Positions 18,400 through 33,959 of a DNA stretch of 64,000 nt are shown in pieces (the stretch's first letter is position 1; every line of letters starts with the position of its first letter). The position numbers and the translations under genes are program-made. The stretch is taken from the IMG/VR virus record IMGVR_UViG_3300044695_003767; one strand, given 5' to 3'. The notes beneath the pieces were generated by a model. The model did not search any database and was not told the DNA's origin. It worked only from the letters and a program-made list of their open reading frames with translations. The stretch comes from a virus.

Positions 18400-18750
18400 A
18401 TGACTGCCACCTTTGCCGACTACGTTGCCCAGCAAGACGCAAGGAACACTATTCAGTTGAATGTTACCAAGTGGACTTTGATGCTGTGTGATGCTCTCCG
18501 TGATAATGGTCCCGATGATTATGACTTTACCTTTGAGTCTGGTCGTAAGTATCACAAAATCATTATGATTGATTCTGCTGGTGGACGTAGTGTTCACGCA
18601 TTTGTGGATCGTAAGACTGGTGAAGTCTACAAATCTGCATCTTGGAAGTCTCCTGCCAAAGGTGTTCGATATGATCTTCGCATCATTGAGCAACGTGAAT
18701 GGTTGCTTGAAAATGCAGACTGGGCAGGTTCTTATTTGTACGCAAAGTGA
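18400..18750 (+). CDS. conserved phage early protein
   Basis: GRKYHKI...VHAFVD..TGEVYKSASWKSPAKGVRY. Confidence 0.75.
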   Translation: MTATFADYVAQQDARNTIQLNVTKWTLMLCDALRDNGPDDYDFTFESGRKYHKIIMIDSAGGRSVHAFVDRKTGEVYKSASWKSPAKGVRYDLRIIEQREWLLENADWAGSYLYAK

Positions 18751-18758
18751 TTAGCACA

Positions 18759-18986
18759 ATGAACGACACAATTAACGAACTGACCGTCACTAAGTCTCTC
18801 CGTCTTCTGTGTAACGGTTTCAAATCAGAGTTTGCCACATCTGTGTTTGCAGATGAACGAACGATTGAACTTTTGAGTCAACTTGCAAGTGAGTTTGTGG
18901 ATGCAAACATTCCTGTCGTTGATGATCATAATCAAATGGAACTTGCTATGATGCTACTGGAATCTCTGGATATTATTGCTCGATGA
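18759..18986 (+). CDS. hypothetical protein
   Basis: Tiles. Confidence 0.65.
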   Translation: MNDTINELTVTKSLRLLCNGFKSEFATSVFADERTIELLSQLASEFVDANIPVVDDHNQMELAMMLLESLDIIAR

Positions 18987-19044
18987 CTGCTAGAGACAAA
19001 CTCATCTTCATCTCTTCGTTCATTTATTTCTTGCACTGGGGGCA

Positions 19045-19521
19045 ATGTCTTACTTTGAAATGTCTGGATATGGTTACTCTAAACGTACCTGTCAGGATGT
19101 TACCACTTGGTTTCTGAATAAGTTCCTTCCACGCCATAAGATTGAGGTGGAGATTCGTCACCGTGGTCTGCGTCGTGAACAAGTTTATGGTTACTGTGAT
19201 TATGTGGGAGAATCTTATCGTCCTCGTGAGTTTTTGATTGAACTCAACACCTATATGTGTGAGGAGTTGTATATAAAAACTCTTTTACACGAACTGGTCC
19301 ACCTGCGGCAGTGGGTAGTCGGTTCACTGCGGGTCCGTCGTGGAAAAATGTGTTATGGTAAACAATGTGTTGAAGATTATGAGTATTGGTATCAGCCCCA
19401 CGAAATAGAGGCACGGGAGCAAGAAGAAACCCTATATCTTGAGTACCTAATTGAGAAGCAAGGTGTGCCAGATCCCAAAGTGGCACAGTTCTTCCCGAAC
19501 CGCCTGCTGCAGGCAGTATAA
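19045..19521 (+). CDS. zincin-type (HExxH) metallopeptidase-like protein
   Basis: TLLHELVHLRQ plus downstream PHEIEA; start uncertain. Confidence 0.75.
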   Translation: MSYFEMSGYGYSKRTCQDVTTWFLNKFLPRHKIEVEIRHRGLRREQVYGYCDYVGESYRPREFLIELNTYMCEELYIKTLLHELVHLRQWVVGSLRVRRGKMCYGKQCVEDYEYWYQPHEIEAREQEETLYLEYLIEKQGVPDPKVAQFFPNRLLQAV

Positions 19522-25089: not shown

Positions 25090-25407
25090 ATGAAACTGTC
25101 TGAATTTATTTTTCATATTGTCTGTGAAATGAATGATGCTCGATTCGCATTTCCAGTCAAGGTCAAAGAAGAAAAGGAAAGACTGGCACATTGCCTGAGT
25201 TGTGATCATTATGATGCCGAATCTCAGATGTGTGGATTGTGCAATTGTTATGTGCCAAACAAGGTAAAGCACTTGTATGAGTTCTGTCCTCTCGAAAAAT
25301 GGGATCGAAGTTCCGAAACCTGGAATGATACGTATTGTAATCTGTTTGCCGAAAAAGTCATTGAAAAGTACCCTGATGCAGAAGAATGGAAGAATCAATT
25401 AAACTAA
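25090..25407 (+). CDS. Cys-rich DUF6171-like protein
   Basis: RLAHCLSC...CGLCNC...CPLEKW. Confidence 0.7.
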   Translation: MKLSEFIFHIVCEMNDARFAFPVKVKEEKERLAHCLSCDHYDAESQMCGLCNCYVPNKVKHLYEFCPLEKWDRSSETWNDTYCNLFAEKVIEKYPDAEEWKNQLN

Positions 25408-25985
25408 AAGGAACGTATGAAGACTTTATTGGAACATACGAAAACATTCTAGATTTCAATCTCTGTGATGAGATCATAGGTGCATTTGATTATTATCACG
25501 ATATGGATGCCGTCTTCTGTGAAGATGGACAATTTGAGAATTCCAATGCAGGACGATTCGATTGGGCAATTGATCTATCAGAACTTGGATCAACAATGAA
25601 ACCGACTCATCCTCAACAGATTGTGAATAATGTACTGAAAGAATGTCTAGATGAGTATATGACTGTCTTTGGTCATCTTAAACCATTGGTTCTTTATTCG
25701 ATTAATCAGAAGGTACAAAAGACTCCTGCTGGTGGTGGTTATCACGTCTGGCACGATGAGAATACTTCTATTCAACATTCATCTAGAGTTGCTGTTTGGA
25801 TGTTTTATTTGAATGATGACTTTGAAGGAGGAGAGACTGAGTTTCTGTATTATAAGAAGAGAATCAATCCATCGAAAGGAACATTGTTAATTTGGCCTGC
25901 TGGATTAACACATTGTCATCGTGGTGGATTAGTTCTGAAAGGTACAAAGTATGTTGTAACGGGATGGTTCTATGTCGGACAATAA
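25386..25985 (+). CDS. 2OG-Fe(II) oxygenase (prolyl-4-hydroxylase-like)
   Basis: GYHVWHDE, YLNDDFEGGET, THCHRG, KYVVTGW. Confidence 0.88.
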   Translation: MEESIKLKGTYEDFIGTYENILDFNLCDEIIGAFDYYHDMDAVFCEDGQFENSNAGRFDWAIDLSELGSTMKPTHPQQIVNNVLKECLDEYMTVFGHLKPLVLYSINQKVQKTPAGGGYHVWHDENTSIQHSSRVAVWMFYLNDDFEGGETEFLYYKKRINPSKGTLLIWPAGLTHCHRGGLVLKGTKYVVTGWFYVGQ

Positions 25986-26244
25986 AGAAGAGAAAGAGTT
26001 TCCATCATTAATCGAACAAGGAAAGAATCTGGCACAGTTCACGTTTGAGGTTGTTAAGGATGTTGTTGTGCCAAATACTGAACATCAGATCTATGCTAGT
26101 AATGAGGTTAAGAAGCAAAGGTTAGATACTTGTAAGACTTGCGAATATTATCATCAACAACAGAATCGTTGTAGGCACTGTGGTTGTTGGTTAGAACATA
26201 AGACTAAGTTCATTGTTGCAGAGTGTCCGATTGGAAAATGGTAG
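25972..26244 (+). CDS. Cys-rich DUF6171-like protein
   Basis: RLDTCKTC...CRHCGC...CPIGKW. Confidence 0.75.
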   Translation: MSDNKEEKEFPSLIEQGKNLAQFTFEVVKDVVVPNTEHQIYASNEVKKQRLDTCKTCEYYHQQQNRCRHCGCWLEHKTKFIVAECPIGKW

Positions 26245-26312
26245 CGAATAATACTAAAATAAGTTAAATTTAATTAAAAAAGGTATTAAAAAACTAATAT
26301 GTTCTTTCTATA

Positions 26313-26370
26313 ACATTCTCAATAAGGTGTAATTAATTGAGAATCAATAGTGTATTATAGTTGAGAATAA
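26313..26370. repeat. ~58-bp core with three ATTCTCAA boxes; inverted copy of 27120-27176
   Basis: Aligns with the reverse complement of 27120-27176 with few mismatches and indels. Confidence 0.8.
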
Positions 26371-26518
26371 GTCTTATACTTGTATTTTATAAGTGTGATA
26401 AAACCTTATAAATGCCTCTGAGACTTGTGTTCATAAAGTCTTTTAAATGTTTATAAATGCCTCTGAGACTTGTATTTTATAAGTGTGATAAAACCTTATA
26501 AATGCCTCTGAGACTTGT
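26361..26518. repeat. 45-bp-period array: 23-bp repeat x3 (+1 degenerate) with 22-bp spacers
   Basis: TTATAAATGCCTCTGAGACTTGT at 26406, 26451, 26496; degenerate at 26361; first and third spacers identical. Confidence 0.92.
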
Positions 26519-26533
26519 GAGTTTAGTCCGCGC

Positions 26534-26563
26534 ATTATAACACACGAGACCCCGAAATGTCAA
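26534..26563 (-). promoter_or_regulatory. consensus sigma70 promoter on minus strand facing the 45-bp array
   Basis: TTGACA-18 nt-TATAAT with extended TG (plus strand ATTATA 26534, TGTCAA 26558). Confidence 0.8.
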
Positions 26564-26598
26564 CCCCCCACGAGATTTGCTACGAGACCCACACATAT

Positions 26599-26856
26599 CT
26601 CGACGAGAATTATAATCATATCTTAACATTTCTCGACGAGAATACATATATATCATTATGAGACTCGACGAGATTGTGCATCATAAGGGCTTGCAAACTC
26701 GTCGAGATCGTGCTACACTATAACAGTCATCAATCATTCTCGACGAGCATTATGTACGACGACTACGATCTCGACTACTCTTTCAGTAACGATTACAATC
26801 TCGACGAGGACTCATACTACGAGCATTATGTGCAAGGTGATGCGAACCTCGACGAG
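26599..26856. repeat. array of 9-bp dyads CTCGWCGAG
   Basis: Copies at 26599, 26632, 26664, 26698, 26739, 26800, 26848. Confidence 0.88.
26691..26719 (+). promoter_or_regulatory. sigma70-like promoter with CTCGTCGAG in spacer
   Basis: TTGCAA-17 nt-TACACT with extended TG. Confidence 0.6.
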
Positions 26857-26913
26857 GATTATGCACGAGATGGGCAAGATTACGAATCACTTGCATATCG
26901 TCATTATGCATGA
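26752..26913 (+). CDS. 53-aa Asp/Tyr-rich protein
   Basis: MYDDYDLDYSFSNDYNLDEDSYY...; downstream of 26691 promoter. Confidence 0.65.
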   Translation: MYDDYDLDYSFSNDYNLDEDSYYEHYVQGDANLDEDYARDGQDYESLAYRHYA

Positions 26914-26943
26914 TAGAATCTAGCACACATACACGAGAGCATC

Positions 26944-27096
26944 ATGATAGCACAGAAGCGTATCGTACAGGTTACACTAGATATCATGTGTTATGATGAT
27001 CTAGACCTAGATGATATTAACTGGCGTGAGTTATTGCAACTCGAACCAGGTGAAGATGTCCATTGTAAGGTACAAGAATTCGATATCGATTGGTAA
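26944..27096 (+). CDS. hypothetical protein (50 aa)
   Basis: MIAQKRIVQVTLDI...; stop abuts dyad copy 10. Confidence 0.65.
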   Translation: MIAQKRIVQVTLDIMCYDDLDLDDINWRELLQLEPGEDVHCKVQEFDIDW

Positions 27097-27199
27097 TGTG
27101 CCAGTTTGTAGATTGGCACATATTCTCAATTAGTAATACTTATTGATTCTCAATAACAAGATCTTATTGAGAATATGTGACAGTCGGAGAACTGGCACA
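27097..27199. repeat. 103-bp imperfect palindrome containing dyad copies 10 (27098-27119) and 11 (27177-27198)
   Basis: Symmetric about 27148; arms TGTGCCAGTT-N4-GAYTGKCAC-ATATTCTCAAT; centre TTATTGA-TTC-TCAATAA. Confidence 0.88.
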
Positions 27200-33951: not shown

Positions 33952-33959
33952 TATAAATA
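33952..33959 (+). promoter_or_regulatory. T4-type late promoter
   Basis: TATAAATA upstream of gp25. Confidence 0.8.

Follow-up and report, generated by a model that had tools for sequence, protein, structure and literature searches.

A predicted promoter, a phased repeat array and candidate protein boxes in a single-copy cassette of T4-like cyanophages, a possible replication origin or control region

Introduction

In oceans and lakes, a large share of picocyanobacteria falls victim to T4-like cyanophages. To our knowledge, it has not been mapped where and how these viruses start the replication of their DNA. Only a single predicted origin, in the cyanophage Syn9, is cited (PMC2984593).

The DNA analysed here (IMG/VR record IMGVR_UViG_3300044695_003767; the window, 64,000 nt) comes from a T4-like freshwater cyanophage (Kyanoviridae). 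The nearest cultured relatives of the window are Synechococcus phages S-SRM01 and DSL-LC03. About 500 bp of the window (26245–26752) have no conserved ORF and lie between a small CxxC gene, which stops at 26244, and a small ORF, which starts at 26753. On the minus strand this stretch contains a perfect promoter followed by an array of regularly spaced direct repeats. The question raised by this locus is what such a promoter and such an array could be for in DNA without a conserved ORF. A sequence-only reading had proposed an RNA processed into 45-nt units, with an anti-defence, guide-like or primer function. Comparison with relatives points to another description, namely that promoter and array form the transcribed left arm, with transcription being predicted, of a gene-free, single-copy cassette of about 0.9 kb. 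No published description of this cassette was found in a literature search.

Sequence features and promoter of the locus

The features of the cassette are listed in Table 1 from left to right, so that the predicted leftward transcript reads the lines of its own arm from below upwards.

Table 1. Positions of predicted features of the cassette and its borders in the 64,000-nt window
Feature	Position	Strand	Basis or remark
A+T-rich tract, putative unwinding element, U-rich end of the transcript, or both	26245–26312	.	Composition
A+T-rich stretch, 82% A+T over 80 bp	26235–26314		Overlaps last 10 nt of upstream gene
Conserved terminal element, three TTGAGAAT/ATTCTCAA boxes	26313–26383	-	Comparison with relatives
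Boxes 1, 2, and 3 of the terminal element	26361–26368, 26337–26344, 26315–26322		Third box inverted
Mini-array	26384–26518	-	Three exact 23-mers and 22-nt intervals A, B, A
Copies of the 23-mer ACAAGTCTCAGAGGCATTTATAA	26496–26518, 26451–26473, 26406–26428	-	Exactly three copies; period 45 nt
Array intervals A, B, A (22 nt)	26474–26495, 26429–26450, 26384–26405		
Predicted RNA start (~26527) and conserved leader	26496–26528	-	Reads CTAAACTCACAAGTCTCAGAGGCATTTATAA; family consensus CTAAGgTCACAAGaCCTggAGGcATTTATAAGG
Leftward sigma-70-type promoter	26534–26569	-	G6 run, TTGACA, 18-nt spacer ending TGT, TATAAT
-35 TTGACA and -10 TATAAT of the leftward promoter	26563–26558, 26539–26534	-	12/12 consensus match, extended -10 TG
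Divergent side	26570–26752	+	Palindromes CTCGACGAG, half-sites ACGAGA, rightward promoter
Palindromes CTCGACGAG	26599, 26632, 26664, 26698, 26739		32–41 bp apart
Rightward promoter, TTGCAA and TACACT	26691–26696, 26714–26719	+	17-nt spacer with one CTCGACGAG palindrome
Small very acidic ORF, 53 aa	26753–26913	+	Predicted; in 20/68 relatives
50-aa acidic protein gene, phrog_12516	26944–27096	+	Profile match (E=2e-12)
Second, inverted TTGAGAAT box trio	27120–27176	-	Closes the ~860 bp cassette

The perfect TTGACA/TATAAT promoter on the minus strand, first noticed in the sequence-only reading, was confirmed. It is the top-scoring site on both strands within 20–34 kb, and the pattern TTGACA-N17/18-TAnnnT occurs a single time on the minus strand of the 64 kb window. 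By our own arithmetic, about 0.02 perfect-match promoters per window are expected by chance. Sixty-nine distinct relatives were gathered by anchoring on the promoter and leader, and TTGACA-17/18-TAnnnT is kept in all members of the set so selected. The extended -10 TGn, which played no part in the selection, is present in 65 of the 69. The spacer has 17 nt in 63 of them, and a G-rich stretch lies upstream of the promoter in 52. Spacer and flanks vary among the 69 relatives while the promoter stays; because of this, and because the unselected TGn is present in 65 of them, the promoter is judged from its conservation to be real and under selection. The word in the promoter spacer depends on the lineage, as it is CTCGTG in the window and CTTATGA in most relatives.

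The start of the RNA is predicted near 26527 solely according to the position of the -10 hexamer. The conserved leader that follows is at the same time repeat 1 of the array. Its pattern common to relatives is CTAAGgTCACAAGaCCT..AGGcATTTATAAGG, and it is also present in phage S-SKS1. That the promoter is aimed into non-coding DNA was borne out too, with no conserved ORF in 26245–26752. A minus-strand ORF of 30 aa was rejected as a gene, as its ATG lies inside the -10 hexamer and the ORF is not conserved. No tRNA or tmRNA was predicted by ARAGORN. Spurious ORFs and tRNAs are called over the cassette by gene callers. The left neighbour of the cassette is variable, with a DUF6171 gene in just 19 of 68 cases, and for this reason antisense regulation of one particular gene is not the role of the leftward RNA.

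Structure and turnover of the array

The three 23-nt repeats with 22-nt intervals in the order A, B, A were found again as first reported. In TRF, the array has the highest score in the window (191), with 3.1 copies of a 45-bp unit and 78% match. When aligned without gaps, intervals A and B are identical at 11 of 22 positions, and the 45-bp unit is itself composed of sub-repeats of about 11 nt. What had been called spacers corresponds to that half of the 45-bp tandem unit which has diverged. The IMG/VR contig G001, which is 93% identical to the window across the locus, has two copies in its array and differs from the window by an indel of 77 nt. This length is not a multiple of 45, and the indel is flanked by a shared TATAA word as judged by eye.

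Tandem repeats were detected in 34 of 59 distinct arrays and were not detectable in the remaining 25. Array periods among relatives, as computed in TRF, are solely 10–12, 20–23, 33–35, and 45 nt, and the arrays have 0 to about 9 copies. At the base of these periods are 11-mers, for example GGCATTTATAA, GGTATCTATGA, and GAGAATTATAA. These unit sequences are unrelated, and a TAT(A/G)A core together with the phase of about 11 nt persists through them. Across relatives the array shares merely a core of about 11 nt, similar to GGCATTTATAA, and the leader. Relatives L012, L129, and L080 have nearly identical flanks and very different arrays in which whole units are replaced, while L046, L019, and S-PM2 have a single core word and no repeats. 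The self-similarity of 35 dereplicated arrays has peaks at lags 10–11, 22, 33, and 44 (z 5–14) and dips at half-periods. As both the periods and the self-similarity follow multiples of about 11 nt, the 45-nt unit of the window represents four turns of this phase and not a unit of repeat and spacer. A feature of the iteron type, direct repeats which are evenly spaced in helical phase and lie at one locus only, is present throughout the family, with a phase of about 11 nt.

The orientation of the array relative to the promoter is fixed in all cases, and the distance from promoter to boxes is always 91–228 nt among relatives. The arrays are mildly A+T-rich (66% vs 58–63% nearby). The G-richness that favours an R-loop is absent from the RNA-like strand of the arrays, where the mean skew is -0.02. 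Tandem late promoters on the plus strand were also considered and rejected for the array: TATAAAT is present in 26 of 59 arrays, yet the cyanophage late word ATAAATA, read on the opposite strand, is in none of the 59. Exact copies of TATAAATA in the window sit elsewhere on the plus strand, at 33952, 49385, and 61853.

The sequence-only reading saw in these repeats a CRISPR-like mini-array or a pseudo-ToxI mimic, transcribed and cut into 45-nt units which guide a defence or act as its decoy. Direct repeats downstream of a promoter are indeed common to CRISPR arrays, ToxI repeat RNAs, and this locus, and three exact 23-mers with regular spacing behind a strong promoter agree with such a view; the features that define these systems are nevertheless absent here. 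The spacers of a CRISPR array are unique and about as long as the repeat or longer, whereas here all three have 22 nt beside a repeat of 23 nt, interval A occurs twice, and A and B are 50% alike. Nor does a conserved repeat accompany changing spacers, since the period ranges from 10 to 45 nt and the sequences of the units differ. The same range of 10–45 nt in relatives that have this promoter and terminal element in common, together with 0–9 copies and the replacement of whole units, speaks against a fixed processing unit of the ToxI kind and against processing into 45-nt units of repeat and spacer. A guide-like RNA is disfavoured by the search of spacers A and B against 2.9 M viral contigs of IMG/VR, in which the only matches were in the homologous array of a near relative. 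Similarly, mimicry of a host repeat or a CRISPR repeat found no counterpart when the repeat 20-mer was searched by exact match in 185,579 prokaryotic genomes (596 Gb): the single match, in a Saprospiraceae coding region, equals the chance expectation. Among viruses, this 20-mer is common to only six contigs, mostly in single copy.

As for known RNA families, the Rfam search of the whole window at gathering thresholds gave nothing relevant, and the search of 26000–27000 at E<=10 gave three unrelated weak matches and no ToxI. No Cas or ToxN-like family was found in the ten flanking ORFs scanned. Folding across the family gave a mean z of -0.86 on the transcribed strand vs -0.64 on its complement, with no conserved fold. 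Compared with its shuffles, the array of the window does fold better (z -4.4), and its opposite strand does so equally well or better. The degenerate fourth repeat described at the distal end (26361–26383) turned out to be a junction with a different element, the conserved terminal element with its box 1. Relatives with tandem repeats of the slippage type and no conserved 23-mer, which the sequence-only reading itself had named as evidence against a repeat RNA, were in large part found. Taking these comparisons together, the CRISPR/ToxI-type reading is largely refuted and is considered highly improbable.

Box trios and their replacement by DnaA boxes

The terminal element next to the array has, in the family, the plan CTTATTCTCAAC..TATTGATTCTCAAT-N12-ATTGAGAA. 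Its boxes 2 and 3 are able to pair as a 9-bp A/U-rich hairpin. In 47 sequences no compensatory changes were found in this hairpin, and there are 24 uncompensated breaks. As for a Fur-box reading of TTGAGAAT, a literature search returned lists of Fur boxes, but the boxes of the trio are not in a 7-1-7 arrangement. The pair of trios which borders the cassette in the window, the second one inverted, has its equivalent in G003, G004, and L071, where paired trio copies are 730–810 bp apart. In near-complete genomes the terminal element is at one locus only, either as a single copy or as an inverted pair with a distance of 755–808 bp.

Beyond the boxes the DNA is markedly A+T-rich. The tract carries a conserved word T6-N6-T6-AATTAAA, recurring as TTTTTTAATAnnTTTTTTAATTAAATTTAAC and TTTTTTAATAnnTTTTTTAATTAAA, and in the window about 215 nt separate it from the predicted start. 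In 50 relatives, binned by 40 nt from the boxes onwards, the mean A+T content is 84% in the first bin, 80% in the second, and about 63% thereafter. There is no GC-rich intrinsic terminator in the A+T tract of the window, and some relatives have GC-rich bidirectional terminators about 60–90 nt beyond the boxes.

The family was searched with the conserved element beside the array (TTCTCAATAAG, a gap, and TGAGAATCAATA) as query, and more than 120 IMG/VR viral contigs were matched. The cassette is at a single locus per genome of 170–240 kb, and it is also present in phages S-SRM01, DSL-LC03, and S-SKS1, with two phage genera represented. Along the transcript, the order in the family is G-rich stretch, TTGACA, 17-nt spacer, TAnnnT, leader, array, terminal element, and an A+T tract of 80 bp. 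Assembly breaks are frequent at the cassette, with 48 of 121 related loci ending <=1 kb from the element.

In several lineages, DnaA boxes are found in the place of the trio. The marine phage S-SKS1 (Llyrvirus, the other genus) has the same promoter and leader, then five 22-nt repeats, and then three DnaA boxes in the same orientation and 21 bp apart. Two of these are TTATCCACA and one is TTTTCCACA, and they are the sole cluster of this genome. The sequence TTTTCCACA is the cyanobacterial DnaA box (PMC4674748). Relatives L125 and L130/131 have three copies of TTTTCCACA in the slot of the trio, also in the same orientation. The spacing of the DnaA boxes in S-SKS1, L125, and L130/131 is 21/21 or 21/11 bp, and with all of them oriented alike no hairpin is possible. 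Both kinds of boxes are present in DSL-LC03, in which 7 of 13 DnaA boxes are within 456 bp around the cassette. Phage S-PM2 has a minimal version, consisting of TTGACA, leader, A+T word, and three DnaA boxes, and Syn9 has a decayed one. No DnaA box was identified in the cassette of the window, whose three TTWTCCACA sequences sit elsewhere. Clusters of boxes at both borders of the cassette were found in the window, DSL-LC03, and L046. Since the potential hairpin has no covariation and in several lineages the trio gives way to same-oriented DnaA boxes unable to form one, the trio fits a set of sequence-specific protein boxes, and its members are regarded as candidate binding sites.

Divergent side and neighbouring genes

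The right side of the cassette is dominated by the palindrome CTCGACGAG. Seven exact copies are in the window, all of them within 26599–26856, where 0.08 would be expected. Two of the seven are within the 53-aa ORF, in which they are translated as LDE. No gene is linked more tightly to the cassette than that of phrog_12516, whose transcription leads away from the leftward promoter. It accompanies 62 of 68 distinct cassettes; it is also beside the cassette in S-SRM01 and S-SKS1. Among the 60 phrog_12516 matches listed, all but three start 137–430 nt rightward of the promoter. The 50-aa protein was modelled in AF2 with a pLDDT of 81 and almost no secondary structure.

Comparison with known origins

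A promoter reading through phased repeats, a candidate box trio, and an A+T tract, with one copy per genome, make up the parts list of an origin. On this ground the cassette is read here, with a probability of about 0.45, as the replication origin of the phage or as a control region linked to replication, of which the leftward transcript would be a cis-acting activator or primer. Of the three functions offered by the sequence-only reading, the primer RNA is compatible with it.

The following course may be proposed. As the sequence and its conservation suggest, the strong leftward promoter would be fired early in infection by the host sigma-70 RNA polymerase. The RNA would pass the leader, the hypervariable direct repeats with their phase of about 11 bp, and the trio of candidate protein boxes, and would next enter the 80-bp tract with about 82% A+T. 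There the transcript, or transcription itself, could open the duplex. The RNA may persist as an R-loop and prime leading-strand synthesis, similarly to T4 oriF and oriG. The repeats would act as DNA, that is, as helically phased sites of binding or bending comparable to iterons in T4 oriE and in plasmids, and not as processed RNA units; an array with a phase of about 11 nt, and with periods only at its multiples, appears to behave like DNA sites. The box trio would recruit a host or phage factor, probably host DnaA in some relatives and some other protein recognising TTGAGAAT in the window.

The R-loop origins of T4 are oriF (uvsY) and oriG (gene 34) (Kreuzer and Brister 2010, PMC3016281). Their layout, with a sigma-70-type -10 promoter leading into an A+T-rich unwinding tract of a T4-like genome, is the same as that of the cassette, and in both the transcript is non-coding at the A+T tract. 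The A+T-rich element downstream of the promoter, typical for an R-loop origin, has 82% A+T here and 80–84% in the 50 relatives. In S-PM2 the A+T tract comes directly after the leader, as it does in oriF and oriG. The promoters of oriF and oriG are MotA-dependent middle promoters, whereas the cassette has a full early promoter with -35 and -10. Unlike in oriF and oriG, the promoter is separated from the A+T tract by a box trio and by phased repeats, 130–200 bp in all, and there is no sequence similarity. We know of no MotA in cyanophages.

Another T4 origin, oriE, has evenly spaced short direct repeats in a transcribed origin region and small early genes adjacent to it (PMC3016281), and in both respects the cassette is alike. 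The repeat period, which is a multiple of about 11 nt in the cassette, and the repeat sequences differ. The small proteins linked to the cassette are strongly acidic and thus unlikely to bind the repeats, in which the comparison with oriE does not hold. In bacterial oriC, iteron plasmids, and phage P1 oriR, boxes, an A+T-rich tract, phased repeats, and promoters reading through them are found in the same order as here. Relatives with perfect, phased, and same-oriented DnaA boxes at one locus only resemble the DnaA-dependent origins in this as well. The window differs from these by having TTGAGAAT boxes instead, no adjacent initiator (Rep) gene, and no GC-skew switch. Also, the cassette is carried by lytic T4-like phages with a replisome of their own, unlike the DnaA-dependent origins of oriC and iteron plasmids.

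Discussion

Several observations stand against an origin. The A+T tract is much farther from the start than at T4 oriF, the cassette of the window has no DnaA box, and the arrays of the family are A+T-rich just mildly. The RNA strand is not G-rich, and its composition thus lends no support to a stable R-loop. There is no GC-skew step at the locus, as the cumulative skew is monotonic both in the window and in the full genomes of G004 (213 kb) and DSL-LC03; this test is weak, as all genes are on one strand and replication of the T4 type is mostly recombination-driven. DnaA is also a transcription factor and a roadblock, so that DnaA boxes in relatives are no proof of an origin. The phase of about 11 nt, too, need not reflect selection for helical register and could go back to an ancestral 11-mer unit.

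The second role of DnaA leads to the view of the cassette as a transcription-control hub and not an origin, where boxes and phased repeats would bind regulators which tune the divergent early promoters to the host state. They would also halt the leftward RNA polymerase, as well as rightward read-through coming from genes upstream, through roadblock or collision, and so serve as an insulator. A divergent promoter pair with palindromes in or near both promoters, the lineage-dependent word in the leftward spacer, and the box clusters at both borders in the window, DSL-LC03, and L046 would all be expected of such a hub. It does not explain, however, why a strong promoter should be there only for its transcription to be halted about 250 nt downstream, within non-coding DNA, why an A+T tract of 80 bp is conserved beyond the boxes, and why there is a single copy per genome when early promoters are many, and it is held to be unlikely. 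If instead the RNA itself were the product, a trans-acting early RNA of about 250–300 nt could offer repeated AU-rich words (..GGCAUUUAUAAGG..) as a sponge for a host RNA-binding protein or nuclease, or as a decoy in defence, and an arms race would account for the extreme turnover between the nearly identical flanks of L012, L129, and L080. The strong conserved promoter, the conserved 5' leader, and the fixed orientation of the repeats are in agreement with it, and the GC-rich bidirectional terminators past the boxes in some relatives would release a discrete RNA. This RNA, however, would have no conserved fold, no Rfam match, and a repeat without host counterpart, and it is not obvious what a phase of about 11 nt would mean for an RNA. 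Moreover, a sponge requires many sites, while L046, L019, and S-PM2 have one core word, and the element on its 3' side is swapped in several lineages for DnaA boxes, which are DNA sites. A product acting in trans is on balance doubtful.

The array could also have no function at all and be a slippage-prone minisatellite between a functional promoter with leader and a functional box trio, with the period of 45 nt as an accident of the last duplication. Copy numbers from 0 to about 9, replaced units, 25 of 59 relatives without detectable tandem repeat, and the 77-nt indel between the window and G001, flanked by its shared TATAA word, are what such a process would leave. It would not keep the promoter-to-box distance always within 91–228 nt, nor would a TAT(A/G)A core with a phase near 11 nt survive in unrelated units, and the absence of ATAAATA from all arrays, though TATAAAT is in 26 of 59, hints at constraint. 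A functionless array is regarded as improbable. An origin or replication-linked control region is the reading which is preferred here.

In that reading, the cassette is a concrete candidate for an origin of T4-like cyanophages, unannotated until now and occurring once per genome in the cultured phages S-SRM01, DSL-LC03, and S-SKS1, and in minimal form in S-PM2. Exchangeable sites for host factors would tie the replication or early transcription of the phage to the physiology of the host. In a more speculative and rather uncertain form, the cassette may be a portable plug-in origin or switch in at least two cyanophage genera, in which an early promoter reads through an array phased at about 11 bp into an unwinding tract, and an exchangeable host-factor trio (DnaA or TTGAGAAT boxes) gates replication or the early programme by host state. 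If this were true, cyanomyoviruses would have in the cassette their first defined origin or control element, and its carriers would be the first lytic T4-like phages that link their cycle to host DnaA or to an analogous factor.

Palindromic words and border elements

The palindrome CTCGACGAG is present in seven exact copies, all within 26599-26856, to the right of the leftward promoter of the cassette, and is absent from the rest of the 64 kb. The first four copies are spaced by 32-34 bp, one copy sits between the -35 and -10 hexamers of the rightward promoter, and two are located within the acidic ORF (a small ORF of 53 aa), where they are translated as LDE. Relatives have different words of CTTATGAG type in the same slot, and the leftward promoter has in its spacer a word that varies together with them. 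Judging from this arrangement, the CTCGACGAG copies look like a lineage-specific set of operators or iterons. Downstream of the right-hand TTGAGAAT trio lies another rightward promoter-like site, ACTGGCACAAGACCC-TTGCAT-17-CATACT, and words resembling the dyads of this border (CTGGCAC..CCCCTTGA) were found in the cultured relative DSL-LC03.

Features flanking and bordering the cassette
Feature	Position	Strand	Remarks
Two small CxxC proteins (DUF6171, phrog_13558) on either side of a 2OG-Fe(II) oxygenase	25090-26244		Directly upstream of the cassette
phrog_12516 gene	26944-27096	+	50-aa, strongly acidic early protein
Inverted right-hand copy of the TTGAGAAT trio	within 27097-27199		Nested inside more dyads (TGTGCCA..TGGCACA)

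Annotation and assembly of the locus

The RefSeq record of S-PM2 (NC_006820.1) has several tRNAs annotated across the DnaA-box-cluster stretch (18506-19333), no tRNA was predicted there by ARAGORN, and the tRNA coordinates of the record look misplaced. Likewise, Syn9 gp86 and gp87 were called across the homologous non-coding stretch. Of 121 related loci (L008-L127 range), 48 terminate less than 1 kb from the conserved element (the terminal box trio), on either side, and the hypervariable cassette locus tends to be a frequent breakpoint of metagenome assemblies.

Linked genes and distribution of the cassette

Only roughly one in four relatives shares the left neighbourhood (DUF6171, 2OG-Fe(II) oxygenase, and phrog_13558). 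Linkage of the phrog_12516 gene to the cassette was seen in 62 of 68 relatives; S-SRM01 also carries the gene. Its product, with the consensus ..KRxVRVTLDIxCYDDLDLxxIxWxELLxLEGDE.., was modelled as a monomer in AF2 with pLDDT of 81 and nearly no secondary structure, and it is probably too acidic to bind the repeats.

The entire cassette is present in S-SKS1 (at about 150.9-151.5 kb of HQ633071.1), which belongs to a different genus, Llyrvirus; a trio of DnaA boxes and five repeats of 22 nt are accompanied there by the leader, the divergent promoters, the acidic ORF, and the phrog_12516 gene. Its presence there suggests that the cassette is a module transferred among cyanophage lineages.
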